Shown: positions 1,810 through 51,984 of the stretch, piece by piece
Layout: the number at the start of each line of letters is the position of its first letter
How positions within the stretch are numbered: the stretch's first letter is position 1
Source of the DNA: Escherichia coli
Lineage (GTDB): Bacteria; Pseudomonadota; Gammaproteobacteria; Enterobacterales; Enterobacteriaceae
Direction: 5' to 3' (one strand)
Assembly (NCBI RefSeq): GCF_013122565.1
Contig: NZ_CP053258.1
DNA: 64,000 nucleotides
Program-made: the position numbers and the translations under genes
Notes under the pieces: model-generated
Seen by the model: only the letters and a program-made list of their open reading frames with translations
What the model was told of the DNA's origin: nothing
The model's database searches: none

Positions 1810-1845
1810 CCAAAAAAAACCCGCTGATTAAGCGGGTTTTGAATT
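1810..1845. terminator. bidirectional intrinsic terminator between convergent crcB and cspE
   Basis: aaaaaaaacccgct-gatta-agcgggtttt hairpin with flanking A and T runs. Confidence 0.7.
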
Positions 1846-1859
1846 CTTGCTGACGTATC

Positions 1860-2069
1860 TTACAGAGCGATTACGTTTGCAGCAGAAGGGCCTTTGGCAC
1901 CGTTAGTGATTTCGAACTCTACACGCTGACCTTCAGCAAGAGTTTTAAAACCATTAGTCTGGATTGCAGAGAAGTGTACGAACACGTCTTTGCTGCCGTC
2001 TTCCGGAGTAATGAAACCGAATCCTTTGGACTCATTAAACCACTTAACGTTACCTTTAATCTTAGACAT
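1860..2069 (-). CDS. cspE: cold-shock-domain protein CspE (69 aa)
   Basis: Internal start of track ORF 1860..2153; [37 protein letters not shown] contains the RNP1/RNP2 cold-shock motifs. Confidence 0.95.
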
Positions 2070-2243
2070 CAAAATTACCTTTACATGAAAAATAGACACA
2101 AATGCTGTGTCGGTTACCAGTACACCAATTGTGGTACGCTTTGTCCAGTGCAACTTTACTAAAAAGTGATAAAAGTCGCGTTATTTTTGATGTTAATTAT
2201 TTTACTCATTGATTTTAAAGAGTTTACTAAAATTTCATTTGTC

Positions 2244-15167: not shown

Positions 15168-15313
15168 TCATCTGATTTACAAAACACGCTAATTCGTCTC
15201 CCATAAACCATGACGATTAAGATTTATACATAATGCGCTGCATTGAGGAATTCCCTGAATGTGACGCAAATCACTTCAAAGAGTGAGCAACAGTCAGTAT
15301 CATCATGTGAGTT

Positions 15314-15348
15314 AAACCCTCGCCGCCTGACGGTGAGGGTTTTCTTTT
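15314..15348 (+). terminator. intrinsic terminator downstream of rna
   Basis: aaaccctcgccg-cctga-cggtgagggtttt-cttttgg hairpin plus U-tract (coordinates approximate). Confidence 0.6.
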
Positions 15349-15396
15349 GGGTATGTTTATCTGCGACACTCGCAGTACCGACGACATGGAGTAAAA

Positions 15397-25812: not shown

Positions 25813-26901
25813 ATGCCTCACAATCCTATCCGCGTGGTCGTCGGCCCGGCTAACTACTTTTCACATCCAGGAAGTTTCAATCACCTGCACGATTTTTTCA
25901 CTGATGAACAGCTTTCTCGCGCGGTGTGGATCTACGGCGAACGCGCCATTGCTGCGGCGCAAACCAAACTTCCGCCAGCGTTTGAACTGCCAGGGGCAAA
26001 GCATATTTTGTTTCGCGGTCATTGCAGCGAAAGCGATGTACAACAACTGGCGGCTGAGTCCGGTGACGATCGCAGCGTGGTGATTGGCATCGGCGGCGGC
26101 GCACTGCTCGACACCGCGAAAGCCCTCGCCCGCCGTCTCGGTCTGCCGTTTGTTGCCGTTCCGACGATCGCCGCCACCTGCGCCGCCTGGACACCGCTCT
26201 CCGTCTGGTATAACGATGCCGGACAGGCGCTGCATTATGAGATTTTCGACGACGCCAATTTTATGGTGCTGGTGGAGCCAGAGATTATCCTCAATGCGCC
26301 GCAACGATATCTGCTGGCGGGGATCGGTGACACGCTGGCGAAATGGTATGAAGCGGTGGTGCTGGCCCCGCAACCAGAAACGTTGCCGCTAACCGTGCGG
26401 CTAGGGATCAATAATGCGCTGGCTATTCGCGACGTCTTGTTAAACAGTAGCGAACAGGCGCTTGCCGATCAGCAAAATCACCAGTTAACGCAATCATTTT
26501 GCGATGTGGTGGATGCCATTATTGCTGGTGGTGGGATGGTTGGTGGTCTGGGCGATCGTTTTACGCGTGTGGCGGCAGCTCATGCCGTGCATAACGGTCT
26601 GACCGTGCTGCCGCAAACCGAGAAGTTTCTCCACGGCACCAAAGTCGCCTACGGAATTCTGGTGCAAAGCGCCTTGCTGGGTCAGGATGATGTGCTGGCG
26701 CAATTAACTGGAGCGTATCAGCGTTTTCATCTGCCGACTACGCTGGCGGAGCTGGAAGTGGATATCAATAATCAGGCGGAGATCGACAAAGTGATTGCCC
26801 ACACCTTGCGCCCGGTGGAATCCATTCATTACCTGCCGGTCACGCTGACACCGGATACGTTGCGTGCAGCGTTCGAAAAAGTGGAATCGTTTAAAGCCTG
26901 A
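25813..26901 (+). CDS. ybdH: iron-containing alcohol dehydrogenase family hydroxycarboxylate dehydrogenase (362 aa)
   Basis: Track ORF 362 aa, glycerol-dehydrogenase-like fold (GGGALLDTAKA motif). Confidence 0.9.
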   Translation: MPHNPIRVVVGPANYFSHPGSFNHLHDFFTDEQLSRAVWIYGERAIAAAQTKLPPAFELPGAKHILFRGHCSESDVQQLAAESGDDRSVVIGIGGGALLDTAKALARRLGLPFVAVPTIAATCAAWTPLSVWYNDAGQALHYEIFDDANFMVLVEPEIILNAPQRYLLAGIGDTLAKWYEAVVLAPQPETLPLTVRLGINNALAIRDVLLNSSEQALADQQNHQLTQSFCDVVDAIIAGGGMVGGLGDRFTRVAAAHAVHNGLTVLPQTEKFLHGTKVAYGILVQSALLGQDDVLAQLTGAYQRFHLPTTLAELEVDINNQAEIDKVIAHTLRPVESIHYLPVTLTPDTLRAAFEKVESFKA

Positions 26902-26910
26902 CGTACACAT

Positions 26911-27108
26911 TTAGCAGCAGCGCGCGCCGCCTTTTCCACCGTAGCGCGCGTCCTGCCGCTCACGGAAAAACTCCTCGTAGGTCATCGGCGTCTGATCGGG
27001 ATGGTTAACCCGCATATGTTCGACATAGTTGTCGTAATCAGGCATACCAATCATCAGTTTCGCCGCCTGACCTAAATATTTTCCGGCTTTTGCCAGTGAA
27101 TCAAACAT
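26911..27108 (-). CDS. ybdD: small DUF466 protein encoded downstream of cstA (65 aa)
   Basis: Track ORF 65 aa ([48 protein letters not shown]...). Confidence 0.85.
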
Positions 27109-27141
27109 TAATACCTCCGGTAATCAGGTTGCCAGGAGAGT

Positions 27142-27176
27142 GCCGGATGCGGCGTGAACGCCTTATCCGGCCTACA
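27142..27176. repeat. REP (repetitive extragenic palindrome) between ybdD and cstA
   Basis: gccggatgcggcgtgaacgccttatccggcctaca, canonical REP-like sequence; the same 35-mer recurs at 49068-49102. Confidence 0.6.
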
Positions 27177-27184
27177 AATGCTAT

Positions 27185-27295
27185 CAACGTGCTCGGTCAG
27201 TCCCCTCGCCCCACCGGGGAGAGGGTTAGGGTGAGGGGAAACCCTCGGCGCCATGCCAACATTCGCCAACATTCCCCCTCACTCTGACTTTAGTG
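27185..27295. repeat. GC-rich imperfect palindromic element (GGGAGAGGG / CCCTCACCC cores) downstream of cstA
   Basis: cccctcgccccaccggggagagggttagggtgaggggaaaccctc...; shares about 20-nt cores with the element in the fepB leader (coordinates approximate to about 15 bp). Confidence 0.4.
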
Positions 27296-29395
27296 CGCGC
27301 CTTTTGCCTGCGCCACGATCTCCTCGACATTTTCCGGCATCGGCTCATACGGCGTTTCTTTCGCCGTTGGCTTCGGATCTTTCAATGCCGCAAGTGCCGT
27401 CTTAATCGAGAACAGTGCCAGAACCACCACGACCACCATAAAGAAGATGGTTAACCCGGCATCCAGACGGTTGTTGAACACCAGTTGCGCCAGCTGTGAC
27501 TCAGTATACTGCGACGGAATATTGCCGCTGTCGATCATTGCCTGGAACTTGTTAGCAATCGCCAGGAAGCCGACTTTCGCATCCGGGCTAAACGCTTTCT
27601 GCCAGCCTGCGGTCAGGGTACAAATCAGCAGCCAGGCCGTTGGTACCAGCGCCACCCAGGCGTAACGTTGACGTTTCATTTTGAACAGCACTACGGCACA
27701 GAGCATCAGCGCCATCCCTGCCAGCATCTGGTTGGCAATACCAAACAGCGGCCACAGAGTGTTAATACCGCCCAGCGGATCGACCACGCCCTGATGGAGG
27801 AAGTAGCCCCACGCCAGTACGCACAGCGCCGTTGCCAGCAGGTTAGCAGGCAGTGAATCGGTCCGTTTCAGACCCGGAGACACCACGCCCAGCAGATCCT
27901 GCAACATAAAGCGCGCAGCACGCGTACCTGCATCCACCGCCGTCAGAATAAACAGTGCTTCAAACAAAATGGCGAAGTGATACCAGAACGCCACATCCAT
28001 CATGCCGCCCAGCGCGCCGTGCAGAATGTAGGCCATCCCCACCGCCAGCGTCGGCGCACCGCCCGCACGGGAAATGATCGACTGTTCACCCACTTCGCTG
28101 GCAATCTGGTTTAGCGTATCCGGGGTAATCGCAAAGCCCCAGCTACTCACCACCTGCGCGGCAGAAGCGACCACATCCGCCGTCCCTGCCGGAGCCAGCA
28201 CCGCCATCGGGCTGTTCATGGCGAAGTACACACCCGGATCGATGATACAGGCGGAAACCAGCGCCATAATCGCTACGAAGGATTCCATCAACATCCCGCC
28301 GTAGCCGATAAAGCACGCCTGCCCTTCGTTCGCCAGCATCTTCGGCGTGGTGCCGGAAGAGATCAGCGCATGGAAGCCAGACACCGCGCCACAGGCGATG
28401 GTGATAAACAGGAACGGGAACAGGTTACCGGTCCATACCGGGCCAGTGCCATCGACAAATTTGGTCAGCGCAGGCATGGTCAGCGTCGGGCGCATAATCA
28501 AAATGCCTACCGCCAGACCGACGATAGTCCCGATTTTCAGGAAGGTAGAAAGGTAGTCACGCGGAGCCAGCAGCAACCACACCGGCAGCACCGCCGCCAC
28601 AAAACCGTAACCCACCAGCATCCAGGTCAGCTGCACGCCGGTAAAGTCAAAGTACGGTGCCCAGGTCGGGCTTTCTGCCACCCAGCCGCCAGAGATAATG
28701 GCGAAAATCAGGAATACCAGACCGATGACCGACACTTCACCAATACGCCCCGGACGCAGATAGCGCAGGTAGATCCCCATAAACAGCGCCAGCGGAATGG
28801 TGAACGCAACGGTATACGTTCCCCACGGGCTATGAGTCAGGGCTTTCACCACGATCATCGCCAGTACTGCAAGGATAATGACCATGATCATAAAGCAGGC
28901 CACCAGCGCTATCACCCCGGCGGTTGGCCCCATCTCTTCTTTGACCAGCTCACCCAGCGATCGACCGTCACGGCGCGTAGAAACAAACAGCACCATGAAA
29001 TCCTGCACCGCACCGGCGAGAACCACCCCGGCGAGCAGCCAGATCATCCCTGGCAGGTAACCCATTTGCGCCGCCAGTACCGGCCCAACCAACGGACCTG
29101 CTCCGGCAATGGCCGCAAAATGGTGACCGAACAGCACTTTCTTGTCCGTCGGCACATAGTCCAGCCCGTCGTTATGCCGCACCGCTGGCGTCATACGCGT
29201 CGGGTCAACCGCCAGCACATTTTTGGCGATATACAGACCATAAAAACGGTAAGCGATCAGATAGATACAGACCGACGCCACCACAATCCACAGTGCGTTG
29301 ATCTGTTCCCCACGATTTAAAGCAATGTATCCCAGAGCAAATGCTCCCATTACAGAGAGCACTGTCCAGACGAGGTATTTCCCTGATTTGTTCAT
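27290..29395 (-). CDS. cstA: carbon starvation protein A, CstA-family peptide/pyruvate transporter (701 aa)
   Basis: Track ORF 701 aa, large polytopic membrane protein. Confidence 0.93.
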   Translation of the reverse strand: MNKSGKYLVWTVLSVMGAFALGYIALNRGEQINALWIVVASVCIYLIAYRFYGLYIAKNVLAVDPTRMTPAVRHNDGLDYVPTDKKVLFGHHFAAIAGAGPLVGPVLAAQMGYLPGMIWLLAGVVLAGAVQDFMVLFVSTRRDGRSLGELVKEEMGPTAGVIALVACFMIMVIILAVLAMIVVKALTHSPWGTYTVAFTIPLALFMGIYLRYLRPGRIGEVSVIGLVFLIFAIISGGWVAESPTWAPYFDFTGVQLTWMLVGYGFVAAVLPVWLLLAPRDYLSTFLKIGTIVGLAVGILIMRPTLTMPALTKFVDGTGPVWTGNLFPFLFITIACGAVSGFHALISSGTTPKMLANEGQACFIGYGGMLMESFVAIMALVSACIIDPGVYFAMNSPMAVLAPAGTADVVASAAQVVSSWGFAITPDTLNQIASEVGEQSIISRAGGAPTLAVGMAYILHGALGGMMDVAFWYHFAILFEALFILTAVDAGTRAARFMLQDLLGVVSPGLKRTDSLPANLLATALCVLAWGYFLHQGVVDPLGGINTLWPLFGIANQMLAGMALMLCAVVLFKMKRQRYAWVALVPTAWLLICTLTAGWQKAFSPDAKVGFLAIANKFQAMIDSGNIPSQYTESQLAQLVFNNRLDAGLTIFFMVVVVVLALFSIKTALAALKDPKPTAKETPYEPMPENVEEIVAQAKGAH

Positions 29396-31608: not shown

Positions 31609-33219
31609 TCAGGCTGATGCGCGTGACGCCAGCCACTGACGTAATTGTTTTTTATCGACTTTCCCGACCGCCGTCAGCGGAAGTGAATCCACACACTCCA
31701 CGCGATCCGGTAATTTAAATTCGGCAATACCCTGTTCACGCAGGAAACGACGCACCTGCACCGCGCGCAGCGGCTCTTTTACCACCAGATAAGCACAGCT
31801 TTTTTCGCCCATCAGCTCATCTTCCATACTGACCAGTGCGGCGTAGATCACCGCCGGATGGCGCAGCAGCAGGTTTTCGATCTCTTCGGCAGCGATCTTC
31901 TCACCGCCACGGTTGATCTGATCTTTCTCGCGCCCCTGCACGGTGATGTACCCCTCTGGATCAATAGAGATCAGATCGCCGGAACAGTAAAAACCGTTGG
32001 CATCAAAGGCGCTGGCATTGTGCTGCGGGCTTTTGTAATAGCCACGGAAGGTGTACGGACCGCGGGTCATCAGGCGTCCAACTTCCCCTTGCGGCAGTGG
32101 TTTTCCTTCGGCATCGGCAACCCACACTTCATCGTCCGGACACATTGGGTAACCCTGGGTATGGATAATTTTCTCCGCGCTATCATCAAGTCGGGTGTAG
32201 TTCACCAGCCCTTCCGCCATGCCAAACACCTGCTGCAACTGGCAGCCAATCTCAGCGGGAATACGCGCCGCAAGGGTGGCAGAAAGACGTGCGCCGCCGA
32301 CCTGTAACAGTTTCAGCGAGGCAAGCTGCGCCCGGCTTTCGCCTTCAGCCAGCGCCTGCAACCACAGGCTGACTGCCGGCGGCACCAGCGCGGTAACGTT
32401 AACCTGATGTTTTGCAATCAACGGGAAGCAAAGCGTGGCGCTGGGATCGGCCGCCAGAACAACCGTTCCTCCGGCAAGAAAGACGCCCAGCGATCCCGGC
32501 GAACTCATGGCGTAGTTATGAGCCGCCGGGATCGCGCACAGGTAGCGTGTCTGTTGTGTGAACTGACAAATCTCGACGCTACGACGCACGCTGTAGTAGT
32601 AGTCGTTATGAGTGCGCGGGATCAGCTTCGGTGTACCGGTGGTGCCGCCGGAAAGCTGGAAATAGGCCACTTCATCAGCAGGTGACGGCATAGCAGTAAA
32701 ACCGTCTGCCGGATGGTTAATCGCATCCTGCAAGTTATGCTCACCGCAGTCGTTGTGCAGTTGCACCACGCGAATGGAGGAGTGCTCTGCAACAAATGTG
32801 TTGAGGAAATCATCCCCGCTAAATAGCGCATGTTGGCGATCGGCAATCAGTAACGCCGGTTCAATCTGGCTGGCATAGGCGTTCAGTTCACTACGCTGAT
32901 GGCTGAACAGCGCCAGCACCGGCGCAACGCCCAGTTTCAGCAGTGCGAAAAAGGTAATATACAATTCAGCGACGTTACCCAGTTGTACCAGCGCGGTTTC
33001 ACCAGGTTTAATGCCCTGACGGCGCAAACTACAGGCGAGGTTATCCGCCGCCTGATTCAGCTCCCGGTAACTCAACTGCCGCTCGCCGTCGATAACCGCG
33101 ATGCTGTCACTCGCAGCATGTCGTGTCAGAATGTCAGTCAATGGCAAATCCTGCCAGTAGCCTTTTTCCCGATAGCGACGGGCAAACTCTTCCGGCCAGC
33201 GGGTAAATGGAATGCTCAT
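31609..33219 (-). CDS. entE: 2,3-dihydroxybenzoate-AMP ligase (536 aa)
   Basis: Track ORF 536 aa with adenylation-domain motifs ([14 protein letters not shown]-like). Confidence 0.94.
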
Positions 33220-34589: not shown

Positions 34590-34730
34590 GTGATGGCCTG
34601 CGCCGTTCTGCCCCCTCTCCCTTCCAGGGAGAGGGCTGGGGTGAGGGTTAATGCTCGCACCAGTGCTGGCTGTTCCCCTCACCCTCTCCCCAAAGGGGCG
34701 AGGGTACGGATTGTGCGCTTTGTCGAATTT
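34590..34730. repeat. GC-rich imperfect palindromic element in the fepB leader / entC-fepB intergenic region
   Basis: ccccctctccc-ttcc-agggagagggctggggtgaggg ... cccctcaccctctcccc-aaa-ggggcgaggg: nested inverted repeats (coordinates approximate to about 15 bp). Confidence 0.4.
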
Positions 34731-49067: not shown

Positions 49068-49164
49068 GCCGGATGCGGCGTGAACGCCTTATCCGGCCTA
49101 CAAAATCTTGCTAATTCAATATATTGCAGGACTACGTAGGCCTGATAAGCGTAGCGCATCAGGC
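49068..49164. repeat. BIME: two REP units in inverted orientation between fepA and entD
   Basis: gccggatgcggcgtgaacgccttatccggcctaca (49068-49102) and gtaggcctgataagcgtagcgcatcaggc (49136-49164). Confidence 0.6.
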
Positions 49165-51044: not shown

Positions 51045-51562
51045 TTTTTCGTGGGATGAGCTAAGGCTTTCAGCTTTTTTAGATACACAAGCCGCGTTTC
51101 AAGAAATCGAACTTGCCTTTCAAGATCCTCAATGCGTCGGTCTTTTGACAGCTCCAATGCTGATGCCGCTTTTTCTGGATCAACTGATATTGCAATGTTT
51201 CTTTTGGTGCCAATCTTGAGCGCGCGTAAACCAGCTTCTCCGCGCTCTTCATAAACCTTCAGCCACCTGGCTACAGAACCACTACCAGCAAGCATAAAGT
51301 GAGCAGCAGCCTGATTAAGGGACATGTGCTGCTCGATCACAGCTTTCACGACCTTAATACGCAACTCTGGATCAGCACTAACACCTTTAGGTTTGGGAAT
51401 TAAACCTTTTTCTCCATGTTTTTCATAGAGGGCAACCCATGTCCTGACCTGGGTTCGGGGGACACCAAAACGTGCCGAGATGATCCTGTAACCATCATCA
51501 GTAGTGAAGTAGTGATTCACGACTTCAAGGCGCTTTTCAAAAGGGTATTTTGGCTTTGACAT
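51041..51562 (-). CDS. insJ: IS150 OrfA (InsJ, HTH DNA-binding, 173 aa)
   Basis: Track ORF 173 aa (MSKPKYPFEKRLEVVNHYFTTDDGYRIISARFGVPRTQVRTW...), recognised as IS150 OrfA. Confidence 0.93.
   Translation of the reverse strand: MSKPKYPFEKRLEVVNHYFTTDDGYRIISARFGVPRTQVRTWVALYEKHGEKGLIPKPKGVSADPELRIKVVKAVIEQHMSLNQAAAHFMLAGSGSVARWLKVYEERGEAGLRALKIGTKRNIAISVDPEKAASALELSKDRRIEDLERQVRFLETRLVYLKKLKALAHPTKK
51074..51080 (-). other. IS150 programmed -1 ribosomal frameshift slippery heptamer A_AAA_AAG near the end of orfA
   Basis: orfA codons ...CTA AAA AAG CTG... (L-K-K-L) located 11-12 codons before the orfA stop, within the orfA/orfB overlap window. Confidence 0.7.
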
Positions 51563-51984
51563 ATCAGGGGCTATTCCATTTCATCGTCCAACAAAATGGG
51601 TGCAGTACAGGGTTGATAGAAATATCTCCTGGGGCTTCATCTTTCCAGACCTCAGAGTAAACCTGAAACCGGAAAGCTTCAGGCACCCGCCGTTATCTTA
51701 CCCTTCCTCAACAAAATAGCTGTTTATTTATACAGTGAGTCCTGTTTCGGACTTCTCACTCCCCATTTGATCAACTGAAGCTGAACCCGTTTTTTTCTGC
51801 ATGCCGCAATCGTCAAAATTCTTCGCCACCAGCCAGCCGTGCCATAACTTGTCACATTGCAAAAGTAGCCAAATTGCTTCAGGCACCATCAGTTCACCAT
51901 CACCAAAAAAAAGAAACATTCCAGAACTTCCGCATCTCGCCCAGCCGCTCCGACTTCTATACTGAATAGAAAACGCCAACATAA

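Follow-up and report, generated by a model that had tools for sequence, protein, structure and literature searches.

Between cstA and ybdD, two genes whose products act jointly in pyruvate uptake (PMC5847655), the chromosome of Escherichia coli carries a short element, and the locus raises the question of what this element is and whether it matters to the two genes that enclose it. The window considered here, i.e., the whole stretch of 64,000 nucleotides that was analysed (contig NZ_CP053258.1 of assembly GCF_013122565.1), contains the genes fepDGC-entS-fepB / entCEBAH-cstA-ybdD-hcxA in an orientation inverted relative to that of K-12. Both cstA (27290-29395, stop codon 27290-27292) and ybdD (26911-27108, start codon 27106-27108) lie on the minus strand, so that the cstA-ybdD mRNA carries the C-rich strand of the element. 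The spacer between the stop codon of cstA and the start codon of ybdD is 181 nt long and the element (27187-27241) lies inside it, i.e., it is intergenic. The strain differs from K-12, as K-12-type records are about 95% identical to the window over the surrounding 580 nt, and the 201 nt around the element are found with 100% identity in strains such as UTME-7.

A first-pass annotation of this DNA had proposed that the element is palindromic, adjoins a canonical REP and has a related copy some 7 kb away, the two copies belonging to a dispersed repeat family distinct from REP, for which the Box C class was offered as a guess. The two 21-mers quoted in support, GGGAGAGGGTTAGGGTGAGGG and GGGAGAGGGCTGGGGTGAGGG, were located on the plus strand at 27217-27237 and 34627-34647, 7,410 bp apart. 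Their kinship goes beyond chance, since they are the sole two matches in the 64 kb with at most two mismatches, and 100 dinucleotide-preserving shuffles yielded no such match (mean 0.00, maximum 0). The likeness extends beyond the G/C runs: the three 9-nt blocks of the two copies match at 8/9, 9/9 and 9/9 positions, and a left extension is also common to both. The 9-mers GGGTGAGGG and GGGAGAGGG are over-represented in the window (4 found versus 0.32 expected, and 5 versus 0.20, respectively). Extra 9-mer matches at 2362 and 37341 were considered as further copies and rejected, being isolated single blocks within coding sequence. The description as palindromic, however, has to be abandoned, as the order of blocks in the element, one C-block and then two G-blocks, is not that of a simple palindrome.

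A repeat described under the names BoxC, PIT element and TMECO has the consensus CCCTCNCCC-N3-6-GGGNGAGGG-N3-GGGNGAGGG, with a last position [G/T/C/-] (Holder et al. 2015, NAR 43:10126, PMC4666352). BoxC was first noted adjoining envM/fabI (Bergler et al. 1992, J Gen Microbiol 138:2093), and the name PIT, which stands for potential intrastrand triplex, originates from Hoyne et al. 2000 (J Mol Biol 302:797) and Hoyne & Maher 2002 (J Mol Biol 318:373). Applied to the window as a regular expression, this consensus gives two matches, 27203-27237 and 34613-34647, both on the plus strand. The cstA copy reads CCCTCGCCC-CACCG-GGGAGAGGG-TTA-GGGTGAGGG-G, which is the published subtype "type A, one mismatch" ("A mm"; the type A/B and mismatch subtypes are defined in PMC4666352), the commonest one in K-12.

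Ten K-12 copies, fetched by their published coordinates, were aligned with the window copy (11 sequences). Over its 37-nt core, the cstA copy shares 84-95% identity with the ten K-12 copies, including the one located between fabI and ycjD, which is the original envM BoxC, and 100% identity with the LF82 copy; over 55 nt, its identity to the K-12 copies ranges from 0.69 to 0.91. Conservation in the 11 copies extends over about 55 nt, comprising a left extension (aCGnGCnCGntCgGTC) that is partly conserved, an invariant core and a GAA tail, in agreement with the 56 bp cited as the length of BoxC (PMC2267715). The K-12 copies fetched lie between annotated genes, except for alx-sstT, where a single flanking gene is annotated. 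The guess of Box C was thus correct: the published consensus fits, and the alignment with the ten other E. coli copies, that of fabI/envM among them, holds over about 55 nt. The family is also dispersed: in 5,425 of 5,426 complete E. coli genomes, a 100-nt BoxC composite used as BLAST query hits a median of 18 places per genome (range 3-32), and 92,377 of the 92,445 places are on chromosomes. Published counts are 23 K-12 copies fitting the consensus (PMC4666352) and 32 BoxC copies (PMC2267715).

It should be added that the site itself has already been catalogued. An identical 36-mer, CCCTCGCCCCACCGGGGAGAGGGTTAGGGTGAGGGG, is tabulated for LF82 (NC_011993, 604683-604718) and for NRG 857C (Holder et al. 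2015, Table S8), and the LF82 interval falls between cstA and ybdD. Judged by its sequence, the element 27187-27241 is an ordinary BoxC copy of subtype A with one mismatch, at a locus that is already in a published list. It belongs to the same family as the 23 K-12 copies, with an exact fit to the consensus, the "A mm" subtype, TTA as loop 2, an intergenic location and roughly 55 nt conserved with the flanks. Nothing essential sets it apart, except that its loop 1 (ACC) is locus-specific and that its partner would be cut to a 15-nt remnant. Rfam 15, which has no BoxC family, gives no gathering-level match at the element, and the interval 27192-27291 has chance-level matches only (E of at least 0.05).

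On the plus strand, the unit begins with the left extension ACGTGCTCGGTCAGTC (27187-27202), corresponding to the partly conserved columns of the 11 copies and common to the type-B copy too. Block 1, the C-block CCCTCGCCC (27203-27211), which is recognized by the consensus and invariant in the alignment, is separated by loop 1 (CACCG, 27212-27216), which varies among copies, from block 2, the first G-block GGGAGAGGG (27217-27225). Blocks 1 and 2 pair with one G.A mismatch, which is that of the published "mm" subtype. Loop 2 (TTA, 27226-27228) defines type A and leads to block 3, the second G-block GGGTGAGGG with an additional G (27229-27238), which is the third strand in the published in-vitro triplex and an alternative partner of block 1.

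The sequence that follows suggests that the element was once part of a pair. MAFFT aligns the next 35 nt (27239-27273) with the spacers of the K-12 tail-to-tail type-A/type-B pairs located at fepB-entC, ygfF-gcvP and alx-sstT (consensus approximately GAACAGGCCAGCACTGGTGCGAACATTA). A 10-nt tandem duplication, GCCAACATTC twice (27255-27274), is single-copy or deleted in other strains. Next to it, CCCCCTCACTCTGAC (27274-27288) abuts the cstA stop codon. It is the inverted complement of block 3, with which both the DNA and the RNA folds predict it to pair, and MAFFT places it opposite the beginning of the partner copy of the K-12 pairs; it is probably the remnant of an inverted partner, of which only 15 nt would be left beside a spacer resembling those of the K-12 pairs. 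As a whole, 27187-27288 looks like a degenerate tail-to-tail BoxC pair, in which the type-A copy is intact, the spacer is of the kind found in pairs and the partner would survive as a 15-nt remnant. The interval originally delimited, 27185-27295, spans this putative decayed unit almost exactly.

The second match in the window belongs to a pair. The plus-strand copy of the fepB-entC divergent region (34613-34648, regex match 34613-34647) is type-B-like, with CTG as loop 2, and is the orthologue of K-12 TMECO no. 8. The closest relative of the cstA copy at that locus is not this copy, which the first-pass annotation had quoted, but its inverted type-A partner on the minus strand (34675-34704). 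According to the regex and to alignments with K-12, this partner has lost 6 nt (TTAGGG) compared with K-12 and has no consensus match. The fepB-entC locus of the window is thus an inverted type-A/type-B pair whose type-A member is damaged by a 6-nt deletion.

The canonical REP announced beside the element is indeed present in the cstA-ybdD spacer as the inverted repeat GCCGGATGCGGCGTGAACGCCTTATCCGGCCTAC (27142-27175), outside BoxC and 12 nt away from its left extension. In Rfam it resembles, below threshold, the REP-derived family naRNA4 (E = 1.8e-5, the match being confined to 27069-27172), and a query that includes it yields at least 40 BLAST places per E. coli genome. The distinction drawn between the two families also holds, since 27187-27241 has no similarity to the adjoining REP and the REP consensus palindrome (GCCGGATG...CATCCGGC type), sought in this interval, was not found there. 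REP/BIME elements and BoxC are alike in being dispersed, intergenic and hairpin-forming, often just after stop codons and inside operons. However, REP is a simple imperfect palindrome found in several hundred copies (485 copies of PU-BIME in E. coli, PMC2267715), whereas BoxC has three blocks and about 20-30 copies.

Comparison of eight aligned E. coli alleles, and of further alleles from public assemblies, reveals that the cstA-ybdD spacer is highly polymorphic, a mosaic of alleles. BoxC and REP coexist in the window strain and in K-12. BoxC is present and REP missing in NC101, LF82, MEC2025, MSB1_8B and L139, while in ECONIH5 and L138 blocks 2 and 3 of BoxC are fused by the loss of 6 nt. KKa019 has the REP and no BoxC core, and neither is found in the class with a 511-nt match, to which CUVET17 and L137 belong. 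In terms of BLAST coverage, which gives approximate shares, the BoxC + REP composite is covered to at least 80% in 2,729 of 5,426 genomes (about half) and the BoxC composite in 4,096 of 5,426; roughly one quarter of the genomes would have BoxC only and roughly one quarter no BoxC core (approximately 1,200-1,330 of 5,426).

In K-12, the third block is disrupted by a single inserted A (GGGTGAGAGGG). The K-12 cstA copy is absent from the published list of 23 because its third block is mutated and fails the consensus, and consensus-based catalogues therefore undercount the BoxC family, which calls for caution in annotation. Two loci underwent the identical 6-nt deletion independently, namely the cstA copy in ECONIH5 and L138 and, in the window, the fepB-entC partner. 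Such deletions fit slippage between G-runs that are 6 nt apart and also the elevated local variability reported by Holder et al. (2015, PMC4666352); variability and partial deletions have been described for the family. In the alleles devoid of BoxC, a remnant of the left extension (CCGAGCGTGTTGATAGC) survives, as does a hairpin whose sequence is complementary to the partner remnant, which makes these alleles look like products of deletion or of palindrome correction rather than empty sites, matching the published "palindrome effect". Neither a clean empty site nor a target-site duplication was found among the BoxC-plus and BoxC-less alleles compared, the differences amounting to complex replacement.

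The same spacer is occupied in other ways in other genera. In Salmonella and Citrobacter, it is about 60-65 nt long and contains one plain hairpin, GCCCTCTCC-loop-GGAGAGGGC, after which ATTTG is found some 22 nt ahead of the ybdD ATG. The E. coli allele of the 511-nt class retains a homologous hairpin, AGCCCTC...GAGGGCATTTG. The Salmonella/Citrobacter hairpin occupies the same position, about 22 nt upstream of the ybdD start, and BoxC blocks 1 and 2 use the CCCTCTCC/GGAGAGGG words of which its stem is made. Unlike BoxC, it has only two blocks, no third G-block and no BoxC flanks, and fails the consensus. In Enterobacter, the spacer carries a single type-B copy with the G-rich strand in the sense orientation (L140-142), head-to-head type-A/type-B pairs (L150, L152), a collapsed perfect palindrome (L153), a REP only (L151), or a REP with a two-block hairpin or a degenerate copy (L143, L146, L154). 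The G-rich-sense BoxC copy of Enterobacter lies next to ybdD, in an orientation opposite to that of Escherichia. Since the BoxC-type copies of Enterobacter are arranged differently, the cstA-ybdD spacer was colonised by BoxC at least twice independently, in Escherichia and in Enterobacter.

Beyond these genera, a consensus scan was run on one genome per species; the matches listed come from few genomes and serve as examples, not as a taxonomic distribution. Among them, the three blocks are identical in Mitsuaria chitosanitabida (Betaproteobacteria, with more than 100 consensus matches), in a Methylomirabilota MAG, in a Contendobacter MAG and in an unclassified MAG. Among the matches listed, loop 1 reads GCTTGC in 128 of the 166 copies of the scanned loci, most of them from Mitsuaria. 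The plasmid matches obtained by BLAST come for the most part from Rhizobium, Sinorhizobium and Azospirillum, where they lie on large replicons that are often non-mobilizable, or from chromosome-sized E. coli records; the alphaproteobacterial megaplasmids carry the same three 9-nt blocks as E. coli. The element is essentially absent from phages (3 records). Loops and flanks are lineage-specific while the blocks remain constant across lineages. This broad occurrence is not new, since a wide proteobacterial distribution of the element had been reported previously (Holder et al. 2015, PMC4666352). Constant blocks combined with variable loops and flanks hint at a constraint beyond that of a plain hairpin, which the view of the element as a passenger does not explain.

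As for what the element does in the transcript, the predicted RNA fold of the cstA-ybdD spacer has a minimum free energy of -84.1 kcal/mol (z = -3.45). In the C-rich mRNA strand, a three-way junction is predicted, with GUCAG/CUGAC as outer stem. One branch, GUGAGGGGG, directly follows the cstA stop codon and pairs with CCCCUCAC, the complement of block 3; another part of the junction is the hairpin CCCUCUCCCC-GGU-GGGGCGAGGG, and the REP hairpin comes next. At least one very stable hairpin is predicted in every allele examined from Escherichia, Salmonella, Citrobacter and Enterobacter, and the z-scores range from -2.5 to -12.6 apart from that of K-12 (-0.53). No promoter-like or terminator-like site was found on either strand of 26850-27450, where the hairpins lack a U-tract. 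Published tests of PIT elements detected neither promoter nor terminator activity, nor any effect on RNA polymerase. The pstA-pstB spacer of K-12 has the same REP + BoxC arrangement, also with the C-rich strand in the mRNA.

The BoxC of the cstA-ybdD spacer is most likely a dispensable passenger and not a dedicated regulator. We infer this neutrality from natural variation, dispensability being read from the alleles that have no BoxC core, a 6-nt deletion or, in K-12, a disrupted third block. What the element would contribute to the cstA-ybdD mRNA is strong stem-loops, with an effect presumably analogous to that of REP, so that a similar passive influence on mRNA decay is likely. A stable stem-loop between the cistrons could hinder 3'-5' decay or partly decouple cstA from ybdD, and the element may in this way affect mRNA stability, to judge from the predicted folds. 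At the DNA level, its directly repeated GGGNGAGGG blocks would lead to small slippage deletions. Taken together, the reading of this locus as a BoxC copy of the "A mm" subtype, within a decayed tail-to-tail pair, that is a dispensable passenger in the cstA-ybdD spacer appears highly probable to us.

The finding of a stable hairpin in every allele and genus examined could, nevertheless, mean selection for structure rather than neutrality. BoxC would then be here a selected intercistronic RNA module that protects the upstream cstA message from 3'-5' exonucleases or tunes ybdD relative to cstA, a role that BoxC, REP or a plain hairpin could fill alike. That at least one very stable hairpin persists between the cstA stop codon and the Shine-Dalgarno sequence of ybdD despite differing sequences speaks for this idea, together with the conserved plain hairpin of Salmonella and Citrobacter, the independent acquisition of BoxC by Enterobacter in the same spacer and the arrangement found at pstA-pstB. 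However, hairpin-forming repeats accumulate in spacers anyway, so that the persistence of hairpins is expected without selection; moreover, the K-12 allele folds no better than a shuffled sequence, about one quarter of the genomes have no BoxC core, and the published tests of PIT elements mentioned above were negative for promoter, terminator and polymerase effects. We regard such a module as somewhat unlikely. At the DNA level, the G-rich single strand could instead form an intrastrand purine-motif triplex (or H-DNA) that stalls polymerases and creates a rearrangement hot spot, as in the "source of genomic instability" model of Holder et al. The arrangement of the blocks is compatible with the triplets G.G-C, T.A-T and A.A-T (one mismatch, as read from the sequence), and "A mm" oligonucleotides form a stable triplex in vitro, with a Tm of 70-82 C (PMC4666352); the "type A mm" oligonucleotides used in published CD and NMR differ from the cstA copy in loop 1 only (PMC4666352). 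The marked polymorphism of the spacer would also suit this model, as would the recurrence, at the cstA copy and at the fepB-entC partner, of one 6-nt deletion that takes away loop 2 together with half a block. The triplex is, however, established in vitro only: DMS footprinting in vivo gave no support to a stable triplex, and a duplex formed when the complementary strand was present (PMC4666352). Furthermore, ordinary slippage between GGG runs 6 nt apart can account for the deletions, and the polymorphism also hits the REP and unrelated segments, which leaves the triplex model unlikely. A G-quadruplex of the G-rich strand, either regulatory or blocking replication, is highly improbable. Although GGGGAGAGGGTTAGGGTGAGGGG (27216-27238) fits the pattern of four G-runs of at least 3 with loops of 1-7 nt, the 18 imino signals that NMR gave for full-length TMECO oligonucleotides are consistent with a triplex and not with a quadruplex (PMC4666352), and the G-rich strand is the template strand of cstA, absent both from the mRNA and from the displaced non-template strand.

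The origin of the copy calls for the same weighing. REPs are mobilised by the RAYT transposase, and BoxC could likewise be mobile without being autonomous, or serve a conserved protein as binding site, the cstA copy being an insertion made by that machinery. The multiple copies with conserved ends (GGTC...GAA) in E. coli, the homogeneous lineage-specific loops and flanks within each genome, which suggest amplification bursts, the conservation of the block sequences across phyla and the independent colonisation of the same spacer in two genera would all be in line with mobility. Against it stand the lack of a clean empty site and of a target-site duplication in the allele comparison, the near absence from phages and the nature of the plasmid matches, mostly on large, often non-mobilizable replicons or chromosome-sized records. 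Furthermore, we know of no mobilising enzyme and no associated gene for BoxC. Mitsuaria was examined for a MITE-like organisation, as 27 of 30 close pairs among the matches listed are head-to-head there, but these pairs enclose unrelated DNA of 30-272 nt with no conserved interior, and this reading was rejected. An insertion by such machinery thus seems decidedly doubtful. Finally, a chance likeness of two G/C-rich stretches, or a Rho-independent terminator of cstA, has only G/C richness and the position after a stop codon in its favour. The shuffles, the alignment of 11 copies over 37-55 nt and the terminator scan, which found hairpins without a U-tract, rule it out for practical purposes, and ybdD lies downstream, is co-oriented and works with cstA.

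Two further ideas emerge from the comparison between genera, both of them speculative and of low probability. Either BoxC is attracted to, or grows from, existing CCCTC/GAGGG hairpins, or the intercistronic structure is selected and BoxC has been co-opted in it as an interchangeable module setting the CstA:YbdD ratio. If true, either of them would give a 30-year-old orphan repeat its first function or targeting rule.

The identification of the element itself adds little, as BoxC/PIT/TMECO has been described repeatedly since 1992 and the site figures in a supplementary table. The value of the locus lies rather in its natural allelic series (BoxC + REP, BoxC only, REP only, neither, 6-nt deletion and mutated third block). 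This series sits in a two-gene unit with a simple phenotype, pyruvate uptake and sensitivity to 3-fluoropyruvate, which makes the in-vivo role of BoxC directly testable.

Two small ORFs run across the element, one of 65 aa on the plus strand (27090-27287) and one of 54 aa on the minus strand (27108-27272), and both were set aside as mechanical ORFs. The start of the latter falls within the 10-nt duplication, and in the allele of NC101 and LF82 a stop codon cuts it short after three codons (ATG TTG GCA TAG).

Salmonella (locus L144, 1153-1179), Citrobacter (L147, 355-378) and E. coli alleles that have neither BoxC nor REP, such as that of strain CUVET17 (L122), have in common a plain hairpin between cstA and ybdD, GCCCTCTCC-loop-GGAGAGGGC with ATTTG after it. 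It precedes the ybdD start by about 22 nt, and its stem consists of the same words as blocks 1 and 2 of BoxC. This hairpin could represent either the structure that the spacer had ancestrally or a relic with two blocks. The same spacer also holds BoxC-type copies in Enterobacter genomes (among loci L140-L143, L146 and L150-L154, from Enterobacter and relatives), arranged otherwise than in E. coli: some spacers have one type-B copy, others type-A/type-B pairs placed head-to-head or a collapsed perfect palindrome of 49 nt, and others only a REP. These differing arrangements imply that the spacer was colonised independently and turned over rapidly in this second genus.

In K-12, the third block of the reference BoxC of this spacer is disrupted (GGGTGAGAGGG; K-12 locus L001, 12062-12072). 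Because of this disruption, the copy does not fit the published consensus and is not among the 23 listed K-12 TMECOs; the size of the BoxC family is underestimated by catalogues based on a consensus. The closest K-12 copy to the 55-nt BoxC of the window is that of the pstA-pstB intercistronic spacer (0.91; L136, NC_000913 3908367-3908548), whose arrangement matches that of cstA-ybdD: a type-A BoxC and a REP lie some tens of bases apart, and the operon mRNA likewise carries the C-rich strand of BoxC.

The partner copy of the fepB-entC locus (34675-34704, minus strand) lacks the 6 nt TTAGGG, corresponding to loop 2 and three G, so that blocks 2 and 3 are joined. The same loss is seen in cstA-ybdD copies of other strains (loci L127 and L138). 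It arose independently at fepB-entC in the window strain and at cstA-ybdD in those other strains, and this recurrence at two loci suggests a slippage hot spot within BoxC.

Two further local features characterise the window allele of the cstA-ybdD spacer. A perfect 10-nt tandem duplication (GCCAACATTC twice, 27255-27274), located within the spacer of the BoxC pair, is polymorphic: in the alignment of E. coli alleles, NC101 and KKa019 align with a single unit and the stretch is absent from CUVET17. Just upstream of ybdD (27109-27136, minus strand), the fold predicted for the window allele pairs the GGAGG of the Shine-Dalgarno sequence with CUCUCC(U)GG, a segment that lies upstream of it; K-12 reads differently there (CTCTTTCAG). 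According to this folding model, the ybdD ribosome-binding site may be occluded in an allele-specific way.

Consensus BoxC copies, well over a hundred, also occur in the betaproteobacterium Mitsuaria chitosanitabida (loci L010-L116), where they are uniform in loop 1 (GCTTGC) and in the right flank (TCTTCGGGCTC). Close pairs are mostly head-to-head there (minus then plus in 27 of 30), whereas those of E. coli are mostly tail-to-tail; the DNA enclosed by the head-to-head pairs of Mitsuaria is unrelated from pair to pair, 30-272 nt long, and in some cases contains tandem repeats. E. coli BoxC matches (94% identical) were also found at two places in each of two 174-kb "Campylobacter phage" records (MG065686.1, including 141090-141140, and MG065691.1, including 32983-33033). 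Such matches would not be expected in a Campylobacter phage and may reflect contamination or chimeric assembly.

Elsewhere in the window, Rfam matches at gathering level correspond to the cspA thermoregulator (1812-2170, minus strand), the rnk leader (15243-15351, plus strand), the ES036 sRNA (49102-49143, plus strand) and the sok antitoxin RNA (51533-51688, minus strand), this last suggesting a hok/sok locus at that position.
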